Shown here: positions 5,006 through 26,469 of the stretch, piece after piece | Position numbering within the stretch: position 1 is the first letter of the stretch | How the letters are laid out: the number at the start of each line of letters is the position of its first letter | Origin: a virus | Lineage: Duplodnaviria; Caudoviricetes | Virus record (IMG/VR): IMGVR_UViG_3300048592_000249 | Location: 1-26,469 of that record | Strand: one strand, 5' to 3' | Length of the DNA: 26,469 nucleotides | Notes under the pieces: generated by a model | The model's input: the letters and a program-made list of their open reading frames with translations, nothing else | Told to the model about the DNA's origin: nothing | The model's database searches: none | Translations under genes and position numbers: made by a program

Positions 5006-5436
5006 CCCAAAGCACCCGCTACACCATCGGGCAGGCGCTGTTTGGCGTGGTCTCGTCTGTGGCCACGGCCAACAGCGCGGCGGCGGTCTTCAATCCGCCG
5101 CTGCCGCTGGCCAGGCCGCAGTCGAGTCGCACGCTGTTCTTGCTCGATCGTGGCGACCGCCTTCTCGAGCAGCCGCAGCAGCGAGAGAAGCGGCGCTGTC
5201 GCTTCGTGCTCGGCGCGCTGGTGTCGACGACAGACGCGCACGCGGAGGTCGACGAGCTGCACTTCGCCGCCCGTATGGCCATCCAGGCGCTGTGCAGCAA
5301 AGACCTCGCCGAGGAGGCGCACACCGTGCGCGAAACCGAGGTCGAGCCCGAACTGCGCGACTCCGGTGCCAGCGGCGCGCTGCTGCTCAGCGCCTATGAG
5401 ATCGACTATCGCCAGGTCTACCCGGCCGTGCCCTGA
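5002..5436 (+). CDS. Putative tail terminator/completion protein
   Basis: ATGA overlap with the upstream gene; 144 aa; immediately before the tail tube gene; ends YEIDY. Confidence 0.65.
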   Translation: MTQSTRYTIGQALFGVVSSVATANSAAAVFNPPLPLARPQSSRTLFLLDRGDRLLEQPQQREKRRCRFVLGALVSTTDAHAEVDELHFAARMAIQALCSKDLAEEAHTVRETEVEPELRDSGASGALLLSAYEIDYRQVYPAVP

Positions 5437-6465: not shown

Positions 6466-9400
6466 GTGACCGACCCCAAGATCCGATACGACATCGAGGC
6501 CAACGCCACGGGCGGGCAGTCCGTCCAGGCGCTGGCGGCCGATCTCGAACGGCTCGATGCGTCCATCGACCCCGCGCTGGCCGAGCGCGCCCGCGGCGTC
6601 GCTGGTGAGTTGCGCACGCTGGGCGAGCAAAAGACATCCATCGCGGAGTTCGTCCGCCTGAAGGATGCGACCGCAGCGTCGGCCGCCGCCCTGCAGCAGG
6701 CGCAAGGCGCCATCGCGGCGCACAAGCGCGAGATGGCCGCGTCGGTCGAGCCCACGCGCGCACAGATCGGGCAACTGGCCAAACTCATCGACGCGGCTCG
6801 CGCAGCCAAGACCGAGCACTCCGCCAACGCGACATCGCTCGAGATGCATCGCCGCGCGATGATCGCCGCAGGTGTCGAGACCGAGGGGCTGGCTGGAAAG
6901 AAGGTGCTGCTGACCCAGCGCGAGCGCGAGCTCGTGCAGCTCGGGCGCAGCATCACCGGCTCGTACCAGGACCAGGCCGCCGCGTCGGCCGCTTCCGCGG
7001 CGGTGCAGTCGCGATCGCACCGCCAGATCGGTGATGGCGTGCAGTCGATCTCGCAGCAACTGCAGCGGCTGCAAACCCTGTCGCTGGCGGCCATCGGCGG
7101 CAATGCGTTCACGCAGATGGCCTTCGATGTGGCCAAGACCGCCGACGCCTACAACGGCCTGGGCGCGCGCATTCGATTGGTGACCGGAGAGGGCGCGGAG
7201 TTCGCGTCGGCCTTTGAGGGCGTCTATGACGTCGCGCGCCGCACCGGTGTGGCTGCTGAGCAGACGGGCACCCTCTTCACGCGCCTGGCGCAGGCCGGCA
7301 AGCAAATCGGCTTGGGCAATCAGGAAGCGCTGGCCCTGACCGAAACCATAAACAAGGCCATCCAGGTCAGCGGTGCCAGCGCGCAGGCGTCCGACGCGGC
7401 CGTGACGCAGCTCATTCAGGGCCTGCAGGGCGGCGCGCTGCGTGGCGAGGAATTCAACTCCGTGATGGAGCAGTCGCCACGCCTGGCTCAGGCACTGGCC
7501 GACGGGCTGGGCGTGACCACGGGTGAGCTGCGCAAGATGGCGCAGGCCGGCGCCCTGACCAGCCAGGTGGTGATTGGCGCCCTGCAGGGCCAGGCCAACA
7601 TCATCGAGTCCGAGTTCTCGAAGCTGCCGCCTACGGTGGGCCGCGCGCTGTCAGCGCTGCAAACGTCGTGGCAGGAGTACATCGGCCAGACCGATCAAGC
7701 CTACGGCGTGACGGCGACCGCGGCCAAGGCCATCACGCTGGTGGCGGACAACCTGCAGGGCTTGGGTACCGCGCTGGTGGCGGCTGGCCAGGCCTGGCTT
7801 GGGTTCAGGGCGCTGGACATCGCATCGACGCTGCTCAGCCACGCCAGCGCAACCGGCGCGGCCACCGTCGCTACTGCCGCCGGCACCGCAGCGACTACGG
7901 CCAACACGGCGGCCAAGGCGGCCAACACCGCGACCATTGCGGCCAATTCCACCGCGCAGGCCGCCAACGCCGTGGCGGCGCGCGCGTCGGCTACTGCCAC
8001 AGCGGCGGCCACTGCCTCCACCGCCACGGGCGTCGCCGGCATCCTCGGGACAGTCGGACGGCTGGCCGGGGTCTTCGGGGCTGTCGGCGTGGCCGTGGCT
8101 GCGTTCGGCGGGCTCGCTGTCGACGCATTCAAGGCCGCCGGCACGTGGATTGGCGAGGGCATCGCCAAGCTGCAAGGCTATCGAGATGCCACGACCGATG
8201 TGGCGTCGCGGGAGAAGGCGCGGGCAGAAGCCGCCAAAGCCGCAAAGGCTGCGCAGGCCGAACTCGACCAGCAGACCGAGCGCGCGCGCGATGCCGCCTT
8301 GGGGCTGTCCGAGCGGTCAAAGGCACTCGTGGCCGACTTCCAGGAAATGCGCCAGAAGGGCAAGGCGACGGCGCAGGCGCTGGCGGAGCTCGCCAAGTCG
8401 CTCGACCTTGGTTCGCTGCAGGGCATCGCCGACGCCGGGGCCGCGCTCGACAAGCTGCGGGTCATCGGTGAGGCGTCGGCCGAGGACGTGCAGCGCGCCT
8501 GGGCCCTGGCGCTCAACGGGCGTGATCTGCGTGCATTCGAGACCCAGGCGCGCGCGGCATTCTCGGGCTCGGCCAATGAGGCCGAGAAACTCGGCGGCGC
8601 GATCGCGGCGATCGCTGACGAATCGTTGCGCCGCGCCGGCACCAGCGTGGAGGAATTGCGCACCGGTTTCAGTGCCGCCATGACCGGCGCGATGAACGAT
8701 ACCGACGCTTTGTCCAAGACGCTCGACGACCTGGGCATCACCGGCACGCGAGCTGGCGAGTTGCTGGCCAAGAGCCTGTCGAAGGAAATCGAGGCCGGCA
8801 AGACAGAGGCGGCGCTCAAGCAGGTCGAGCAGCGAGTGATCGAACTGACGAAGCGCTTCCCCGAGCTTGGCGCAGAAGGGGCCGCGGCCCTCGCCAAGAT
8901 CCGGGCCAAGGCCGACGAACTCAAGCCCGGCATAAGCTCCCTCGCCGAAGCGTTCAAGACGCTGGGCCTCAAGAGCCGTGAGGAGCTCACGCTGACCGCC
9001 GACACGTTCCGGCGCGCCTGGGAGGTCATTCGCGACAACAACGACGCGACCATTCAGCAAAAGATCGCCGCCTTCCAGCGCTACCACGCTGCGGCGGTCG
9101 AGGCCAACGGCGGCGTCGAATCGTCCGAGCTGAGGCTGCAGCGCCAGATCATCGAGACTCAGGCTCGCGTCAAGGGTCTGGGAGAAGAATACGTCCGCTC
9201 GATGAGCAAGGCCGAGCAGTCGACCCGCGCCGTCACCCAGGCCCTGACCGAGCAGCGCAACGCCGCCGCCGGCAGCTTCAGCGGTGACTCTGGCAAGTAC
9301 AAGCTCGACCCAAAAGGCGGCGACAAGGTCGCGGGCGACCCCTATGGTCGCACCCAGGCGCAGATCGACGCGCTGGCCGGCAACACGACGGGCGTCGACA

Positions 9401-20022: not shown

Positions 20023-21046
20023 ACCGATCGTGACCCGGCTGGTTGCTGCCGCCGCGGCGTGCGCCATCTGGCTGATGTGGGCGTTGCTGTGGCCTGGCGT
20101 GGCCCAGGCCCAGGCATCCGCCCCGGCCAGCGCCTGCCCGGCCGGCATCGACTGCGGCAGCGCCTGCGGTGCGGCTGCTACGGGCAAGCGCGTCGGTACG
20201 GCCGAGCCGGTGTCGCTCGCTGCGTCCGATGCCGCGGGGCTGGAGGTCGGCCCCGACGGCTACTGGCGGCACTGCGTGCTCGTGCCGACCCCGGGCACGG
20301 CCTGCGGCGCCGACGGCGTGGGAATCTCCCCGACCGGCGGCACGTATCGTTGGGCGCGGCCTGGCTGGCGCGTGGACGACAACGGCCGTTGGGCCGAGTG
20401 TGACCGCCCGTGCCTGGCCCCTGCAATGACTCCGCGGCCGAAGGCGTGGACTGTCGACGGGCGCACATGCGTGGGCGACCCCGACCGATCGCTTGCACAT
20501 GGGCAAACCGGCTACTGGGCGCAGTGGGACGGCTCGATGCGCGGGCAGCACATCGAGCGCTGCGACGACGGCGTGCGCCGGGTGACCGGCCAGACATGCG
20601 CGCCGGCCATGCAGTGCGACACCGCCATCACGGTGATGCGCGATGGCCGGACGTACAGCTACAACGGGCGCCGGCAGGGCGCCGAGGTGCCGCTGGGCGG
20701 CTACGCGCAGGCCACCGCCGCAGACGGCACGACGCTGCGCGTGCGGTGCGATGCCGGGCGCTGGGTGGTCGCGCCACAGTGCCAGCCGCCGCACCAGTGG
20801 GTGCAGCAGTACACCCGCGATCGACGTGTCTACCGCGGCGACGCACCGGCCCTGAATCCGGGCGAGCGGGTGACGCTCACTCAGGTCGAGGGGAGCATCG
20901 GCCCCGGAGGCAAGCCGCGCACCCGCGTGCTGGAGTGCGGCGAGGATGGGCGGTTGACCACGCGGGTCGGGCTGTCGGTGCCTGCGCCGCATGTGTCGCG
21001 GCAGGGCGATGCCCGCGTGGGCGCTGCGAGCTGGCCGGGGCGGTAG
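20006..21046 (+). CDS. Cys-rich exported protein (346 aa) of unknown function
   Basis: Hydrophobic signal ending AQA; 14 Cys in the mature part; three modules ending in a C-(D/G)-x-(D)G turn motif. Confidence 0.75.
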   Translation: MRLRDEPIVTRLVAAAAACAIWLMWALLWPGVAQAQASAPASACPAGIDCGSACGAAATGKRVGTAEPVSLAASDAAGLEVGPDGYWRHCVLVPTPGTACGADGVGISPTGGTYRWARPGWRVDDNGRWAECDRPCLAPAMTPRPKAWTVDGRTCVGDPDRSLAHGQTGYWAQWDGSMRGQHIERCDDGVRRVTGQTCAPAMQCDTAITVMRDGRTYSYNGRRQGAEVPLGGYAQATAADGTTLRVRCDAGRWVVAPQCQPPHQWVQQYTRDRRVYRGDAPALNPGERVTLTQVEGSIGPGGKPRTRVLECGEDGRLTTRVGLSVPAPHVSRQGDARVGAASWPGR

Positions 21047-21050
21047 TGGC

Positions 21051-21320
21051 TCACCGAGGCTGGAGCGCCGGCCTGACCCACTCGCGCCAGTCCTGCGCGC
21101 GCAGGTGGCCCGCGGCGCAGTGGGCGACGAGGAAGAGCTCCCACGCCGCGCGCGGCATCCGCCTGCGCCCGGCCTCCCAATCTTGCCAGGTGCGCGCGGT
21201 GGCGTACACCTCCGCCGCTGCCTGGGCCTGGGTCTGCAGTACGCCGATGCGGACATCGGCGATCAGCTCGGGCGGGGGGGATGCCGCCACCCGAGTCTTG
21301 CGGTTTGGGTGGTTGGTCAT
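21051..21320 (-). CDS. HTH (XRE-like) transcriptional regulator (89 aa)
   Basis: TQAQAAAEVYATARTWQDWEAGRRRMPRAAWELF; ATG at 21320, just after the upstream gene's stop. Confidence 0.85.
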   Translation of the reverse strand: MTNHPNRKTRVAASPPPELIADVRIGVLQTQAQAAAEVYATARTWQDWEAGRRRMPRAAWELFLVAHCAAGHLRAQDWREWVRPALQPR

Positions 21321-21324
21321 GCCG

Positions 21325-21540
21325 TCAACCGCGCCGCACCTCGACGACGATCGGCACCACGTGCCCGTAATACGGGTTGATGGCGCGCCCGGACGGTGCT
21401 GGTCCACTCCGCAACGAGCGCGCCTCGGCCTCTGCCGCGGCGCGGGTCGAGTGCCGCGTGACGGGGCCGGTGCGCAGCCCACTAAGTTGGTCGGCGCTGT
21501 TCGCCCGCGCCCAATGGACCTCGAAATGAATGGTGCTCAT
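21325..21540 (-). CDS. Hypothetical protein (71 aa)
   Basis: GGGAGAATCGAC-ATG initiation region; middle gene of the minus-strand operon. Confidence 0.7.
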   Translation of the reverse strand: MSTIHFEVHWARANSADQLSGLRTGPVTRHSTRAAAEAEARSLRSGPAPSGRAINPYYGHVVPIVVEVRRG

Positions 21541-21558
21541 GTCGATTCTCCCTATCGA

Positions 21559-21789
21559 TCAGATGGCTTCGTGTTTCTGGGTCTCGACGCAGCCGAGGTA
21601 GCCCAGGGCCGTGCGGAGGTTCATGCACGTGTGCCGCTCTGGCGAGCCAGCGCCGAACAGGCGGAGCGCATCGGTCGCCTGGATCGTGCCTTCGTCGTCG
21701 GCCGCATTCCACGCGGCGAGTACCTCGCGCTTGCTGGCTGTGCCGATGGCCATGCCGTAATGGCGAAGAACTTCGGTCGCTGTTGTCAT
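21559..21789 (-). CDS. Hypothetical protein (76 aa)
   Basis: Identical GGGAGAATCGAC-ATG initiation region; first gene downstream of the promoter at 21850-21878. Confidence 0.7.
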   Translation of the reverse strand: MTTATEVLRHYGMAIGTASKREVLAAWNAADDEGTIQATDALRLFGAGSPERHTCMNLRTALGYLGCVETQKHEAI

Positions 21790-21849
21790 GTCGATTCTCC
21801 CGCCCGCTTCCCGGGGCCCGGGTCGCAGCGGTATTGCTGCGATGGAGAC

Positions 21850-21878
21850 ACTATATCGCACGCAATGCGTGAGTGCAA
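21850..21878 (-). promoter_or_regulatory. Sigma70 promoter with a palindromic operator in the spacer
   Basis: Minus strand TTGCAC-N17-TATAGT; perfect palindrome CACGCA-A-TGCGTG at 21859-21871. Confidence 0.75.
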
Positions 21879-21902
21879 GCGGTTTTCGCATAGGGAAAAC
21901 CC

Positions 21903-22253
21903 GTGACAATCACGCTGGAGTCGATCCACGGCGCTGCGCAGATCGCGCGCGTCTATGAGACCGACCCAGCCGGCAGCATGCCGCCGATCGACGCCGTGTG
22001 CGTGCTCGAATGGGATGCGCCGCGCGTCGTGTGGGTGAAGGCCCTCAAGGGACGGCTCAGCCGGCGCACACTGCGGGAACTGCTGTGCCTGCTGGTCGAC
22101 CTGGGTGTGCACACCGTGCGCGCTCAACGGGCCGAGGGGCACGTGCTGCCCGGGGGCGTGGACCAGGGGGATGGCACGGTGCGGATCGACGTGCGCGCGC
22201 TCGCGCATCGGTTCGCGTCGCCCGGCGCGAGTGCGTGGGCGGACGTCGAGTAA
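21903..22253 (+). CDS. Hypothetical protein (116 aa)
   Basis: GTG start, globular alpha/beta composition, ends just before the attP arm. Confidence 0.65.
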   Translation: MTITLESIHGAAQIARVYETDPAGSMPPIDAVCVLEWDAPRVVWVKALKGRLSRRTLRELLCLLVDLGVHTVRAQRAEGHVLPGGVDQGDGTVRIDVRALAHRFASPGASAWADVE

Positions 22254-22292
22254 TCTGGGTCGCGTGCCGCATGTGCGCACGTCCGGCCATCC

Positions 22293-22510
22293 CTGTGCCG
22301 GTTCTGTGCCGGGTCTAGGCCGATTTCCGTCGTGGCGCCGCGCGCAAGTCCTTGATTTCACACGCGCCGTGACGACCGGAACGTCTTGTGATTCTGGTCG
22401 TCGTGGGTTCGAGTCCCATCAGCCACCCCACCGAATTCCCCTCTGAGAGGGGCACTTCGGGGCCGGTTTCGTTGCCCGCCGCGCGCGACGGTTGTGCCAG
22501 AGTTGTGCCG
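22293..22510. other. attP region: paired arm-type repeats, IHF box and core
   Basis: CTGTGCCGG twice (22293, 22304) and GTTGTGCCR twice (22491, 22502), each pair 11 bp apart. AATCAAGGACTTG on the minus strand at 22345-22357 matches WATCAANNNNTTR. Confidence 0.75.
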
Positions 22511-23598
22511 GTGGCCGGCACGTTCCCGGCCCATTCCGCGATGTGGCTGAGCCCCAGGTGCGCGTAGCGCTGCACCATCGCGAGACTGGCCCAGCCGCCG
22601 AGCTCTTGCAGCACCGGCAGCGGCGTGCCGGCCTGGACGTGCCAGCTCGCCCAGGTGTGCCTTAGGTCGTGGAATCGCAGCCACGGCACGCCAGCGCGCT
22701 CGCAGGCTTTGCGCCATGCGTGATTGCTGACCTTTCCGGTCGGTCCCACCGCCTTGGCCCAAGCCCCGTCGTCGAGCCGCTGCCAGTGCTCGACCGGGAA
22801 GACCCAGCGCCTGTGCTGCCCCGTCTGGCTGGCGAGCACCGCCAGAGCTTCGGCGTTCAGCGGCACGGTATGCGTGCGGCCGGCTTTCATCTCGGCGGCC
22901 TCGAACCACGCCAGCGCGCGAGCTTGGTCGATCTGCTGCCACGTCAGCAGCCGGACGTTGCTTTCGCGCAACCCCGTCGCCAGCGCGAACCTGGCCATTG
23001 CCTGCAGGTGGGGGGGTAGCTCGGCGAGCAGGCCGGCCGCTTGCTCGCGGGTGAGCCATGCGACGCGCTTGGTCGGTTCGTCAGCCTTGGCGATCGGCGG
23101 CACCGCCGCGAGCCAGCCGCGGCGGTGCGCGTAGTGCAGGATCGCGCTGAGCTGAGCCATGTGGCGGTTGACCGTCGCGCCGCTGGTCGCCTTCGGCTCG
23201 GGCGCAGGCCGCTTGGCGGCGTGGGCGCGTGCGATCTCGCGGGCGTTGACCGGCTGTGCGCGGCGCGCCTTGACCAGCCGGCGGATCAGATCATCGGTGA
23301 TCTCGGTCAGCAGCTTCCCCTGCAGGTAAACGCTGAGCCAGCGCAGCACGCGCTTGATCTCCTCAATGCTCTTGCGATGCTCGTGCTCGCCGAGCCATGC
23401 CACGACGGCCTGGTCCCAGGTTACGGACGGGGCTTCGCCGAGCCTCCTGGCGCGCCAGAGATCGCGCGCAAGGGTGGCGGCGTATTCCTTCGCCTCGGAG
23501 TGGTCCGAGGTGCCAGTGCTGCGTCGAGCGCGCTGGCCTGCGACCTCGCCGAGGTCAACCCACCACGTGCCTCGTTTGCCGCGCTGATAGAGCCGCAT
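22315..23598 (-). CDS. int: Phage integrase (tyrosine recombinase, 427 aa)
   Basis: GGAGG RBS before ATG 23598; arm-binding-type N-terminus; TGLRESN, RFHDLRHTWASW, LGGW and QRYAH catalytic motifs. Confidence 0.95.
   Translation of the reverse strand: MRLYQRGKRGTWWVDLGEVAGQRARRSTGTSDHSEAKEYAATLARDLWRARRLGEAPSVTWDQAVVAWLGEHEHRKSIEEIKRVLRWLSVYLQGKLLTEITDDLIRRLVKARRAQPVNAREIARAHAAKRPAPEPKATSGATVNRHMAQLSAILHYAHRRGWLAAVPPIAKADEPTKRVAWLTREQAAGLLAELPPHLQAMARFALATGLRESNVRLLTWQQIDQARALAWFEAAEMKAGRTHTVPLNAEALAVLASQTGQHRRWVFPVEHWQRLDDGAWAKAVGPTGKVSNHAWRKACERAGVPWLRFHDLRHTWASWHVQAGTPLPVLQELGGWASLAMVQRYAHLGLSHIAEWAGNVPATGTTLAQPSRAAGNETGPEVPLSEGNSVGWLMGLEPTTTRITRRSGRHGACEIKDLRAAPRRKSA
22386..22430 (+). other. 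attP core: 3' half of tRNA-His(GTG), not a complete tRNA
   Basis: TTGTGATTCTGGTCGTCGTGGGTTCGAGTCCCATCAGCCACCCCA covers the anticodon loop, T-arm, acceptor 3' strand and CCA. No D-arm or 5' acceptor strand lies upstream. Confidence 0.9.
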
Positions 23599-23780
23599 GG
23601 AGCCTCCCGAAATTTGCCGTACTGTTGCCGCAGCCAAGTCACGACGTCATCCTCGACGAGGACGAAAGCGCGGCCGACCTTGGCCGCCGGTAAGCCGCGA
23701 TTGTGGATGCAGTCGCTAACCGTCTCCGCGGTGGTCTTGAGCACCGCGGCTGCTTCGTCCAGCGTGAGCGTGCGGCTCAT
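23421..23780 (-). CDS. xis: Excisionase-like HTH DNA-binding protein (119 aa)
   Basis: LTLDEAAAVLKTTAETV...GLPAAKVGRAFV motif. The ATG overlaps the intI stop; the 3' end overlaps the int start by 178 nt. Confidence 0.85.
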   Translation of the reverse strand: MSRTLTLDEAAAVLKTTAETVSDCIHNRGLPAAKVGRAFVLVEDDVVTWLRQQYGKFREAPCGSISAANEARGGLTSARSQASALDAALAPRTTPRRRNTPPPLRAISGAPGGSAKPRP

Positions 23781-24838
23781 GCGGGGGCATCCAGCGGACT
23801 GCGCACACCTCGCCCGCCCTGGGTCGCGGGCAGAACGTGGGTGTAGATCATCGTCGTTTCGACATCCGCGTGCCCCAGCAGGGTCTGAATCGTGCGGATG
23901 TCGTAGCCGTCCTGGAGCAGGTGAGTCGCGAACGAATGCCGCAGCGTGTGCGGCGTCGCCCGCTTGAGAATGCCGGCTTGGCGCACGGCGCGCGCCATCA
24001 GGCGCTGGATGCCGTCCTCGTGCAGGTGGTGCCGTCGAATCGCCCCGGTGCGCGGGCAGGTGACGTAAGCGTCGGTGGCGAACACCCACTGCCACCGGAT
24101 GTCCTGGCCGGCGCGCGGGTACTTGGCGTGCAGGGCGTGCGGCAGTTCCACGTCGGCGCGGCCGGCGGCCACGTCGAGCTGATGCAGCGCGCGCCGCTGC
24201 TCGATAACTTCGCCAAGCTGGGATGCCAGCAAGCGCGGCAGCATGACGGTGCGGTCCTTGTTGCCCTTGCCCTCGCGCACGGTGATCGCGCCGGCCGCGA
24301 AGTCGACGTCCTGCACGCGCAGGCGCAGCCCCTCCATCAGCCGCATGCCGGTGCCGTAGAGCAACCGCAGCACCAGGCCGCGCACGCTGGACTGCGGGAT
24401 CTGGCGCCACAGCCGCGCCACCTCGTCGCGCGTGAGCACCACCGGCGGGCGCTGCGCCTGCTTGGCGCGCACGATGCCGTCGACCCACGGCAGATCGACC
24501 TGGAGCGCTTCGCGGTACACGAACAGCAGCGCGGCCAGCGCCTGGCGCTGCGTGCTGGCCGATACATCCCGCTCGGTGGCGAGATGGCTCAGGAACTGGC
24601 CGATCTCCGGCGCGCCCATCTCGAGCGGGTGGCGCTTGCCGGCCCACAAGACGAACTGCCGCGTCCAATGCCAGTACGCCTGCTCGGTGCGGCGGCTGTA
24701 GTGGCGGGTGCGGATGGCGCTGACCAGTGCATGCCGCAGGTGCCCGGGCTCGCCGGGCTGCGGTACAGCCCCAGGCGCGCAGGTCGCAGCGCGGCGCGTA
24801 ACGGCCGTACAGGTGGGCGGTGCGAGGGTGACGCTCAT
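23777..24838 (-). CDS. intI: Integron integrase (up to 353 aa)
   Basis: HYSRRTEQAY, STQRQALAALLF, LLYGTGMRLMEG, VREGKGNKDR, the integron-specific insertion LPHALHAKYPRAGQDIRWQWVF, HTLRHSFATHLL, LLGHADVETTMIYTHV and VRSPLD. All catalytic residues are present. Confidence 0.97.
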   Translation of the reverse strand: MSVTLAPPTCTAVTRRAATCAPGAVPQPGEPGHLRHALVSAIRTRHYSRRTEQAYWHWTRQFVLWAGKRHPLEMGAPEIGQFLSHLATERDVSASTQRQALAALLFVYREALQVDLPWVDGIVRAKQAQRPPVVLTRDEVARLWRQIPQSSVRGLVLRLLYGTGMRLMEGLRLRVQDVDFAAGAITVREGKGNKDRTVMLPRLLASQLGEVIEQRRALHQLDVAAGRADVELPHALHAKYPRAGQDIRWQWVFATDAYVTCPRTGAIRRHHLHEDGIQRLMARAVRQAGILKRATPHTLRHSFATHLLQDGYDIRTIQTLLGHADVETTMIYTHVLPATQGGRGVRSPLDAPA

Positions 24839-24846
24839 GGTGGAGC

Positions 24847-24887
24847 GGTGTTACGCCGCGGGTTTGGCGGTCGAATTCGCGTTGGGC
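24847..24887 (+). other. Putative attI site (crossover G/TT at 24881/24882)
   Basis: GTTGGGC core 43 bp upstream of the intI ATG with no attC hairpin of its own. GGTGTTACGCCGCGGG lies 31 bp before the core and resembles the attI1 direct-repeat region GATGTTACGCAGCAGGG (recalled sequence). Confidence 0.75.
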
Positions 24888-25216
24888 GTCTTGCGGCGCG
24901 CCAGCTCTGCGGCGCACATCGTGATGGCGCGTCGAGTGGCTGCCAGGGCATCTGTGCCGTAGGGCTCCACCACTTCCACGCCGTCGCCTTCCTGAGCATC
25001 GTGGTCCCATACCGGCTTGCGCACGATCACCGAATGCTTTGGCTCGTCGTACATCGGGTACGCGGTCACCTGCAGCCCGATACGTACCGCCAGCACAAAA
25101 GCGTCTTCGTTGTTGGTCAGTGGGTTCCACGGCCGCTCGCCAAAGCCGCTCGGCATCACCCACGGATAGGCGTGGCCGTTGGCCTGTGCTGCACGCATCA
25201 ACAGTTCGTCTTTCAT
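24851..25216 (-). CDS. Cassette 1 ORF: phage hypothetical protein (121 aa), possibly NinX/DUF2591-like
   Basis: AAGGA RBS; WNPLTNNEDAFVLAV...AATRRAITMCAAE motif common in phage early-region proteins. The stop codon lies in attI. Confidence 0.8.
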   Translation of the reverse strand: MKDELLMRAAQANGHAYPWVMPSGFGERPWNPLTNNEDAFVLAVRIGLQVTAYPMYDEPKHSVIVRKPVWDHDAQEGDGVEVVEPYGTDALAATRRAITMCAAELARRKTPNANSTAKPAA

Positions 25217-25245
25217 GCTCAATCCTTCTCGCTTCGGACCCTGCC

Positions 25246-25342
25246 GCCCAACTGGTCGGTCGAGGCGACGCCTTGCGGCGTCGCGGTTGTGGTCTGCGAA
25301 GGCTGGTGCGCCGCAAGGCGCGCCTCACCTCCAACGTTAGGC
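25246..25342 (+). repeat. attC site 1 (97 bp)
   Basis: R'' GCCCAAC, 5 nt, L'' GGTCGAGG (extra C), a perfect 12-bp inner stem (25269-25280/25309-25320), L' CCTCACC, 6 nt, R' GTTAGGC. Confidence 0.93.
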
Positions 25343-25343
25343 C

Positions 25344-25586
25344 TCAATGCTTCCGCACCAGGCCCGAGCGGAACTCTTGGCCGTTCGGGTCGATCACGAT
25401 GAACTCGCCGTTCTCCACCCGCACCTCAACATCGACACCGGTCGCGCTCTTGAACAGGCGCTTCACCCCTTCGATGCCGTTGTCACGCGGCAGTGGCGGC
25501 TTTGGGCATTCGCCGCTGTAGCCGTGGAACTTGAACATCTCTTCGCCTTGCGGCATTGGTTCTCCGCACAATTCGCACTTGCTCAT
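25344..25586 (-). CDS. Cassette 2 ORF: small putative metal-binding protein (80 aa)
   Basis: GGAAAGG RBS; CELCGEPMP...FKFHGYSGECPKPPL; the stop is 1 nt from the R' box. Confidence 0.8.
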   Translation of the reverse strand: MSKCELCGEPMPQGEEMFKFHGYSGECPKPPLPRDNGIEGVKRLFKSATGVDVEVRVENGEFIVIDPNGQEFRSGLVRKH

Positions 25587-25622
25587 CTCGTACCTTTCCG
25601 CCAGGCCTCGCCCGGCTCGTTG

Positions 25623-25647
25623 AAAACGCCCACCCTTGCGGGTCGGC
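25623..25647 (-). terminator. Terminator-like hairpin in the cassette 2 leader
   Basis: Minus strand GCCGACCC-GCAA-GGGTGGGC-GTTTT (one mismatch, short U tract). Confidence 0.4.
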
Positions 25648-25684
25648 TTGTGGTTGTGGTCAGGCCCTGGGCTTCGCGCCACAG

Positions 25685-25745
25685 GCCTAACACGTTGGTC
25701 AAGGGGACGTCCACAAGTGGCCGCCCCTTACCGCTGGGGTTAAGC
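25685..25745 (+). repeat. attC site 2 (61 bp)
   Basis: R'' GCCTAAC, 5 nt, L'' GGTCAAGG, L' CCTTACC, 6 nt, R' GTTAAGC. Confidence 0.93.
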
Positions 25746-25985
25746 GTCAACCGGCACGACAAAATGGCGCGTCCAGTCGGTGTCTCGCGGGGCCGACTTC
25801 TTAACCAGCGCCACCAGTTCATCGAAATGCTTTTGCGCTTCGTTCACCTTGTTGCGTGCGTCGGTTTCACTGTTCCGAGCGCGTGCTGTCAATTCGCACA
25901 TCCGGCCAAGGTAATCCTGTGCCGAAGCCACAGCAGCCACAGCGTTTGCAAGTTGTGTGTTCAGGCTCTGCTTTTGTTCACTCAT
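25740..25985 (-). CDS. Cassette 3 ORF: coiled-coil hypothetical protein (81 aa)
   Basis: AAAGGA RBS; the TAA stop is the TTA inside the attC2 R' box. Confidence 0.8.
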   Translation of the reverse strand: MSEQKQSLNTQLANAVAAVASAQDYLGRMCELTARARNSETDARNKVNEAQKHFDELVALVKKSAPRDTDWTRHFVVPVDA

Positions 25986-26016
25986 ATTCGTGTCCTTTGT
26001 GTGTATTAAAAACTCG

Positions 26017-26070
26017 GTTTAACAGGGCAGTCGAGCGGGACGCTACGCGCCCCTCACTTCTGCGTTGGGC
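26017..26070 (+). repeat. attC site 3 (54 bp)
   Basis: R'' GTTTAAC, 5 nt, L'' AGTCGAGC, L' CCTCACT, 5 nt, R' GTTGGGC. Confidence 0.88.
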
Positions 26071-26071
26071 G

Positions 26072-26289
26072 TCACGATTGCGCGTGCTGATCGCACTGTC
26101 GGTATTCGTACCGCTCCAGGCTCATGGCGTCGTCTTGTGCGGCTCGTAGGTCAGTTGCAGCATGGCCTTTGTCAGCTCGCCGTATTCCTCGCCCAGTACA
26201 GCCAGGGCGTGCAGCGGGTCGGTAGGCCAGGTCGGGAACTTCACCGTGGCTCGGGCCACTTCAGCGGTAATTTGGTCAATAACGTTCAT
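26072..26289 (-). pseudogene. Cassette 4 second ORF: MazG-like (NTP pyrophosphohydrolase fold) gene, apparently frameshifted by an internal deletion
   Basis: AAGGAG RBS; ALAVLGEEYGELTKAML motif; stops at 26122 after 55 aa. Another frame continues AMSLERYEYRQCDQHAQS* to a stop 1 nt from the R' box. Confidence 0.6.
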
Positions 26290-26432
26290 CTTTTTTTGCT
26301 CCTTTGCTTTATGTGATCTAGGTCGTGGTCCTGAACCGTCGCAACTGGGTTGCACCTTTGATTGGCTGAGTGTTTTCCGCCGCAGTAGGGGCATTTCGTT
26401 TTTGTTTCAGGCTTGCGGTCAATGGTTGTCAT
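26286..26432 (-). CDS. Cassette 4 first ORF: 48-aa putative zinc-binding peptide (absent from the ORF track)
   Basis: Translated by hand: MTTIDRKPETKTKCPYCGGKHSANQRCNPVATVQDHDLDHIKQRSKKR*. Its TGA overlaps the next ATG (ATGA). Confidence 0.6.
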   Translation of the reverse strand: MTTIDRKPETKTKCPYCGGKHSANQRCNPVATVQDHDLDHIKQRSKKR

Positions 26433-26442
26433 CGCGGCTCGC

Positions 26443-26469
26443 GCCCAACTGGCGCATCAACCCGGACCG
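26443..26469 (+). repeat. attC site 4, left half (truncated by the window end)
   Basis: R'' GCCCAAC, 5 nt, L'' CATCAACC, then CGGAC. The R'' is complementary to GTTGGGC at 26064. Confidence 0.8.

Follow-up and report, generated by a model that had tools for sequence, protein, structure and literature searches.

At the right-hand end of the viral record IMGVR_UViG_3300048592_000249 (Duplodnaviria; Caudoviricetes), analysed over a stretch of 26,469 nucleotides that we call the window, lies what appears to be a complete integron within a temperate phage. Its attI and attC sites are of the normal kind, its cassette genes are on the attC sites' bottom strand, and the array is probably read from an early-left phage promoter (pL), a reading to which we give a probability of about 80%. 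As judged from its sequence, the element would work as an integron through its integrase (IntI), attI and attC sites and would lack two canonical features, namely open reading frames (ORFs) on the attC top strand and a cassette promoter (Pc).

Three complete attC sites were located on the plus strand, attC1 at 25246..25342, attC2 at 25685..25745 and attC3 at 26017..26070, together with the left part (R'' and L'') of a fourth at 26443..26469 that is cut by the window end and is complete at positions 8279-8341 of a longer record, L001. The R''/R' boxes are at 25246/25336, 25685/25739, 26017/26064 and 26443, the right box of the last site falling beyond the window. Read on the plus strand, each complete site consists of R'', 5 nt, an 8-nt L'' whose fourth position is a bulged C, a 7-nt L' further on, 5 or 6 nt and R', and the L boxes pair at 7, 7 and 6 of 7 positions on this strand versus 4, 4 and 5 on the opposite strand. 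From this asymmetry an earlier note on the DNA had placed the attC top strand on plus, and better scores on minus would have spoken against it. A covariance model (CM) trained on 33 attC sites from sense-coded arrays of ordinary bacterial cassettes gave 51.5, 36.0 and 44.6 bits for the three sites on plus and 6.9, 8.4 and 5.8 bits on minus, and the bulged-L'' motif rule agrees with this placement. In controls, the motif rule assigned the top strand to the annotated ORF strand at 4/4 class 1 sites (L152) and to the strand of most annotated cassette coding sequences at 4/4 sites of a Vibrio array (L155), with a background mean of 0.1 sites in 20 shuffled windows. The CM recovered just one site in each of the Shewanella and Vibrio controls and is therefore weak for long or distant attC types. 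Across three sets of loci, 101/101, 96/97 and 205/205 CM matches (the last from genome loci) were on the strand opposite intI, and in the window the attC top strands are colinear with attI. Detection from the pairing of R'' with R' of the same site failed to pick up attC3, and the motif rule and CM were used instead; folding energy gave no strand signal for the eight attC sites of L001 (bottom strand more stable at 3, top strand at 4, one tie).

All five cassette ORFs are on the minus strand, as the earlier note had read them (24851-25216, 25344-25586, 25740-25985, 26122-26289 and 26286-26432), so that 5/5 are antisense to the attC top strand and none precedes its own attC on that strand. PHROG family matches reach E<1e-6 for two of them and E 0.007 for a third. 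The ORF of cassette 1 (24851..25216, 121 aa) matches phrog_5086 (E 5e-17), has AGAAGGA before its ATG and crosses the attI crossover by 30 nt; the same family is encoded by cassette 5 (L001 7944-8327) and is also found in cassettes of L013 and L057. The cassette 2 ORF (25344..25586, 80 aa), called antisense by a codon model, stops 1 nt from R' and had no Pfam or PHROG family match, while that of cassette 3 (25740..25985, 81 aa) has its TAA within the R' box and matches phrog_27430 weakly (E 0.007). Cassette 4 begins with a 48-aa ORF (26286..26432), recognized by position only and without Pfam or PHROG family matches, which is coupled through an ATGA overlap to a distal ORF (26072..26289, 90 aa in L001, phrog_2831/32803). 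Compared with L001, the window assembly lacks 55 nt between GGCG repeats, a deletion that is either genuine or an assembly error and that splits this distal ORF into a 55-aa piece (26122-26289) and an orphan tail (26072-26125). The claim that the final ORF of each cassette ends at or just across R' thus stands for cassettes 1 to 3 and fails for cassette 4 of the window, where the deletion leaves the stop 52 nt short of R'; the undeleted gene ends 1 nt from R' in L001, so the rule holds for the intact cassette.

The integrase gene, intI (23777..24838, minus strand), encodes 353 aa with a TIGR02249 score of 426 bits (cut-off 265). Its product shares 58% identity with IntI1 across 310 aa, the alignment covering the segments that we take to be the catalytic motifs and the insertion region specific to IntI, and it is by both measures an IntI-family tyrosine recombinase. 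The attI site (24850..24887, plus strand) lies at the 5' end of intI, with the crossover G/TTGGGC at 24881, and was recognized from a motif, GTTAYGC...GTCGAATT-N3-GTT, that is conserved across the clade of related loci described below, the conservation ending at GTT. Entry of cassettes here at G/TT is indicated by this conservation and by a junction in L007 and L009. Between the intI start codon and the crossover there are 42 nt, little space for a promoter of its own, and this distance is 40-84 nt in the 52 clade loci in which the motif was found. The earlier note saw no Pc-like promoter, and a consensus scan restricted to sigma-70 likewise found no Pc that would drive the array, the best plus-strand match in 23700-24880 (intI and attI) being 7/12. 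An inverted repeat, GCGTAAC...GTTACGC, flanks the intI start codon (24796-24856), with GTTACGC 31 nt before the crossover; class 1 attI has the same word at 32 nt. These repeats are possible IntI binding sites for autoregulation, and were ruled out as an attC by a CM score of 9.6 bits. Control by the SOS response through a LexA box at intI is common among integrons and is not universal. A scan with a LexA consensus was not discriminating, with a box in 1/46 clade loci, 7/63 chromosomal loci and none in the window.

The region beyond the window was available from L001 (47,138 bases, rated complete), which is 100% identical to the window apart from the 55-nt deletion and extends 8.3 kb further. 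Its array contains 8 full attC sites, each with its top strand opposite intI, and one remnant. The ninth cassette encodes an N6/N4 methyltransferase, and its attC is cut after R''; at this distal boundary (5230-5245) the last attC ends after R'' and the spacer and joins a Shine-Dalgarno (SD) sequence and ATG of the early region, as would result from fixation of a cassette into the operon through attC loss. An unbroken run of same-strand genes leads from the immunity region through the array to intI, xis and int, with all predicted genes on the intI strand, and nearly all predicted upstream genes of 36 mapped loci are on the intI strand as well. The immunity region holds a cro-like gene (YdaS/P22_Cro match, phrog_35) that is divergent from a 169-aa cI candidate. 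An operator palindrome at 1583, 2330 and 2354 covers pR and the predicted pL; the pR palindrome recurs twice downstream of the cI candidate, and the nearer copy has 1 mismatch versus at least 3 in 10 shuffles. The predicted pL, TTGCGT-17-TATCAT (an 8/12 match), is on the coding strand of the array, ~6 kb right of the window end and ~7.6 kb from attI, with a palindrome copy in its spacer. The search for a repressor-controlled leftward promoter to the right of the window, as proposed in the earlier note, thus yielded an operator-overlapped candidate, and the proposal that the array is read from such a promoter through the cassettes into intI-xis-int is borne out as far as the gene run and the predicted pL of L001 extend. 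Terminator-like sites were at chance level (5 versus 7.4 expected). On the other arm of L001 are genes for a DnaB-like protein, a terminase gpA and a portal of the lambda type.

The exchange of cassettes among related loci indicates that the mobile unit is probably an ORF with its upstream attC, entering at attI. Clade R'' boxes were perfect complements of the R' of their own cassette in 83/99 pairs and of the R' of the same site in 14/99, and the chromosomal arrays gave 85/115 and 14/115, respectively. The IntI of L007 and L009 do not differ. What stands first in the L007 array is the second cassette of L009, and the start of the first L009 cassette is found again at position 3; the junction is at G/TT of R', and the moving ORF is accompanied by the attC at its 5' end. 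Cassettes 1 and 2 of L014 are identical, L035 and L033 differ by whole cassettes, and L013 and L057 share a methyltransferase cassette at 97% identity. These gains, duplications and shared cassettes between related genomes are comparative signs only of excision and insertion by IntI. The L007 and L009 arrays also agree with the expectation that new cassettes enter at attI, the end distal to the predicted pL.

The placement of stops and starts follows the same polarity. In clade internal antisense cassettes the stop was no more than 15 nt away from where the R' box has its TAA in 40/82 (exact in 16), and the stops of sense cassettes were so placed against R'' in 45/66; read-through into the next attC was found in 33/82 clade antisense cassettes versus 8/66 sense cassettes. 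On the bottom strand, the loop of attC contained an SD sequence and an ATG in frame with the cassette ORF at 24/146 clade sites (2 in L001) versus 4/187 chromosomal sites, the strongest sequence evidence for the bottom strand as message. Most cassette ORFs begin 12-36 nt from their own attC or within it, and 90/117 antisense cassette genes are preceded by an SD-like motif. The cargo includes many DNA methyltransferases, PAPS-reductase-like proteins and an exonuclease, and two cargo genes have homologues in four cultured phages without a nearby attC, one of them shortly before an integrase gene. This fits the building of cassettes from ordinary phage early genes.

Loci with a related IntI comprised 71 viral loci and 80 genome loci (L072-L151, the best 80 of 489 genome matches). 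In a first tree of 146 IntI, 63 rows (56 viral, 7 genome) were on one side of a branch with an approximate likelihood ratio support (SH-aLRT) of 99. A second, more careful tree of 62 sampled rows (28 from the clade and 34 others) gave the clade a support of 99/98 and nested it among chromosomal proteobacterial IntI, with Vibrio and Shewanella rows outside; the clade was defined on the first tree, and the second is a test of its support rather than a discovery. L010, a long branch caused by a frameshift in the first tree, was dropped from the second, and L057, L062, L063, L066, L067, L069, L070 and L096 were left out of the trees as their IntI were too short. The earlier note had proposed comparing attC strand with ORF strand across homologous phage arrays. 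With the coding strand called by codon model, clade cassettes were 117 antisense, 5 sense and 23 unclear (42 loci, five near-duplicate loci removed), giving 117/122 of called cassettes as antisense, and chromosomal cassettes were 98 sense, 18 antisense and 57 unclear (48 loci). Family scans of the viral arrays, an independent check on these calls, gave PHROG matches for 42/150 best antisense ORFs (first 150 of 171) versus 3/150 best sense ORFs (first 150 of 169), and these three all came from L050, a sense-coded array with a non-clade IntI. In the chromosomal arrays, 51/150 sense ORFs (first 150 of 173) matched Pfam and 6/150 antisense ORFs matched PHROGs, two rates that are not comparable as the libraries differ. 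On these comparisons, the inverted layout is apparently a lineage trait of a phage-linked IntI clade. Prophage-like relatives are present in metagenome-assembled genomes labelled Rubrivivax, Azoarcus and Nevskia and in Aromatoleum toluolicum T (L114). Antisense calls were also obtained for arrays with a distant viral IntI that is not of the clade (L051, L055 and L065), and the layout may thus have arisen more than once. In L053, L055 and L065, the distant viral intI is directly before terminase genes. Downstream of intI and xis, L024 (11532-12960) and L072 (11300-11371) have attC sites with the polarity of the upstream array, forming a second or split array, and in L153 (Virus Rctr41k, 7921-8813) intI is followed downstream by sense-coded attC cassettes, a layout unlike that of the clade, with 1/3 polarity calls ambiguous.

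Expression of the antisense cassettes from internal promoters, either cassette-borne or across attC, would make them independent of pL and would leave position with little importance. Promoter-bearing cassettes, including some with antisense promoters, are known in Vibrio arrays (10.1101/2023.11.21.568050), and there are ~100 nt before the cassette 2 ORF, an AT-rich stretch before the cassette 3 ORF and ~7.6 kb from pL to attI with no antiterminator identified. We nevertheless consider this explanation unlikely, given that the scan found no promoter above threshold inside the array, that ORFs starting so close to or inside attC leave little room, and that the genes upstream of the array in the mapped loci share the intI strand.

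Two further explanations would change the meaning of the antisense layout itself. If IntI recombined attC top strands, with the crossover in R'', the unit would be an ORF with its downstream attC and the polarity labels would be reversed; recombination of the top strand can take place at a low rate, and the strand chosen switches when the bulges are inverted (PMC5027507). The R'/R'' complementarity within cassettes rather than within sites, the travel of an ORF with its 5' attC in L007 and L009 with the junction at G/TT of R', and the presence of the same attC types in sense-coded chromosomal arrays all oppose it, and a mobile unit made of ORF and upstream attC removes a mere swap of strand labels. 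The junctions largely refute top-strand recombination, and its probability is very small. The array might instead be a captured host integron fragment or a decayed array with no present function in the phage, as Vibrio phages hold pieces of host integrons (PMC9892861), one cassette gene is broken in the window and the distal attC is truncated in L001. This is highly improbable, since the cargo matches phage families and has attC-free homologues in cultured phages, IntI is intact, attI is conserved, the clade is nearly all viral, and the captured host arrays L155 and L050 are mostly sense-coded.

Several observations weigh against a pL-driven phage integron. The predicted pL is below the threshold of the strict scan, which listed pR only, and a shared operator beat all shuffles in 3/8 of the loci giving output (9 tried). 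No Pfam, PHROG or PDB match was found for the cI candidate of L001, which is without a hidden Markov model match, and helix-turn-helix (HTH) matches were found in 5/9 cro/cI-like pairs examined across loci. The intI of the window has no clear SD sequence, and an int or xis gene follows intI in 31/43 clade loci examined and thus not in all, the remaining loci having portal, head, primase, replication or ParB genes, or no match, at this position. Some of the codon model's calls for short ORFs were wrong, as in L115. Clade carriers are metagenomic assemblies or metagenome-assembled genomes only, transcription data consist of unstranded contigs only, and sense-coded small genes are present in a cassette of L006, L014 and L023. 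Among 24 sequencing runs, all in the form of contigs, none contained half of the sequence words, and four that were compared with L001 covered it in part and gave no information on strand. These sense-coded genes (L006 6754-6984, L014 8987-9169 and 9653-9835, L023 57-464) resemble a leftward module of small genes and an HTH gene at 21051-21800 of the window in size and style and may have a promoter of their own.

With cassette genes on the attC bottom strand, transcription of the array from the predicted early-left promoter is likely, and pL-driven expression is well supported by the anatomy of the locus. Predicted CI at pL would keep the array, intI, xis and int silent in the lysogen, and intI, without a promoter of its own, would be under the phage repressor. 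Infection or induction would produce one transcript, carrying cargo first and then IntI, with read-through of ~7.6 kb from pL to attI, and IntI, if catalytically active in vivo, would then shuffle or import cassettes, inserting new ones at the promoter-distal end. The phage would in this way sample small early accessory genes on infection or induction while they remain silent in the lysogen. A reversal of the usual expression gradient, as the earlier note had suggested, would follow only if read-through decays along the array, to which we give somewhat less than an even chance; with an SD-like motif before 90/117 genes and terminator-like sites at chance level, expression may be even along the array. 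Excision is faster when the bottom strand is on the lagging-strand template (Loot et al., PMC5371416), and we speculate that a fork moving leftward out of the replication region of the right arm after pL transcription would place these arrays in the fast-excision state.

The resemblance to class 1 and betaproteobacterial sedentary chromosomal integrons is close, with a TIGR02249 IntI, 58% identity to IntI1, the same attC sequence types, attI at the intI 5' end, its GTT being on the strand opposite intI, an L'' that has a bulged C, insertion at G/TT, and stop codons that abut an R box. Unlike these integrons, the phage array has its ORFs on the attC bottom strand with their own attC before rather than after them, no detected Pc, 42 nt between intI start and crossover, a setting in an early operon and phage-type cargo. 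In the reverse-orientation integrons of Spirochaetota, intI is flipped and the ORFs follow attC polarity. The phage array is similar to these in that intI and the cassette ORFs point the same way (10.1101/2022.02.06.479319); it is set apart from them, by description, in keeping the intI/attI/attC geometry, with attC top strands opposite intI, and in having its ORFs flipped. It also resembles the lambdoid pL operon in its small accessory genes, xis, int and tRNA-derived attP, in the genes of the other arm and in a candidate cro/cI-like divergent pair with predicted operators that recur, and differs from it in having the accessory stretch packaged as IntI cassettes and an intI before xis.

Phage-borne integrons and CALINs (attC clusters without intI) have been published by Qi et al. 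2023 (PMC9892861), and the present array is similar in having integron parts in a phage genome and DNA methyltransferase cassettes. It differs from a CALIN in that intI is adjacent, and from the complete integrons of Qi et al., which are captured host or class 1 platforms (PMC9892861). When tested here for polarity, their Vibrio array was mostly sense-coded and the TJE1 CALIN was sense-coded at 3/3 sites; at one site of P12002L, the stated bottom strand is the ORF strand. For that site the paper notes 'divergent directions' only and that it did not recombine, and its accessible text does not describe a phage-specific IntI clade or a systematic inversion (PMC9892861). According to Nivina et al. 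2016 (PMC5027507), insertion of cassettes so that they face the promoter had not been observed, a statement about inversion of the whole cassette, from which the phage array differs. The layout is not described in the accessible portions of PMC11551772, PMC13366799, PMC8352920, 10.1101/2022.02.06.479319, 10.1101/2024.07.02.601686 or 10.1101/2023.11.21.568050, and antisense-coded phage integrons were not found in a literature search whose scope did not include closed journals, figures, bioRxiv supplements and the annotation file of Qi et al.

Integrons have been understood as bacterial devices in which the asymmetry of attC places promoterless genes before Pc (PMC5027507). In the phage, this chemistry is put to use in a reversed layout, probably wired to the lysis-lysogeny switch, and the integron would be a tool of phage adaptation and not just cargo. 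The two kinds of array form a mirror pair, with stops abutting R' in the phage and R'' in bacteria, and together with the attC-free homologues in cultured phages this makes the question of cassette creation testable. Antisense phage-family cassettes were found in chromosomal arrays at six places (L073 3390-3776, L088 8073-8624, L094 178-915, L096 1764-2078, L115 8776-9543 and L133 8546-8743), encoding methyltransferases, an RNA ligase and unknown PHROGs. The arrays of L073, L094 and L133 also carry sense-coded cassettes, and an L096 cassette and one from the viral L057 share 82% identity. This suggests cassette exchange between phage and host pools, in loci of possible prophage status, and that surveys assuming top-strand coding would mislabel such cassettes as gene-less. 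A wider and tentative interpretation, which taken as a whole we hold to be rather improbable, is a phage IntI lineage with its own cassette economy. Early genes would become cassettes, with attC providing a bottom-strand ribosome site and start; cassettes would reach host chromosomal integrons, where they would be silent against Pc as a hidden phage gene bank; and an incoming phage IntI would excise and express what had been banked. As the mRNA-like strand is also the recombinogenic one, transcription in the lytic phase, with a fork running in the same direction, would lay open the strand that IntI needs, tying shuffling to induction. If true, this would offer a direct handle on cassette genesis.

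In the rest of the window, head, tail and lysis genes are on the plus strand, and from 22.3 kb onward attP is followed by the int, xis and intI module with its genes on minus. The attP core (22386..22430, plus strand), recognized from sequence, corresponds to a tRNA 3' half with the anticodon loop GTG (His). ARAGORN found no whole tRNA there, and at the equivalent point, a loose end at L001 12453, contigs of run X1 go on into sequence resembling a tRNA 5' half. The phage integrase gene, int (22315..23598, minus strand, 427 aa), matches PF00589 (E 1.9e-29) and phrog_1 (E 9.5e-64), and the first 178 nt from its start are overlapped by the xis frame (23421-23598). The excisionase-like xis (23421..23780, minus strand, a 119-aa frame) matches HTH_17 (E 3.7e-9) and, above cut-off, TIGR01764 over its first 62 aa, and its start overlaps the intI stop as ATGA. 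An Rfam scan of 21000-26469 gave two chance matches and nothing else. At the opposite end of the window, positions 1-330 contain an ORF with tandem 66-nt (22-residue) leucine-rich repeats.

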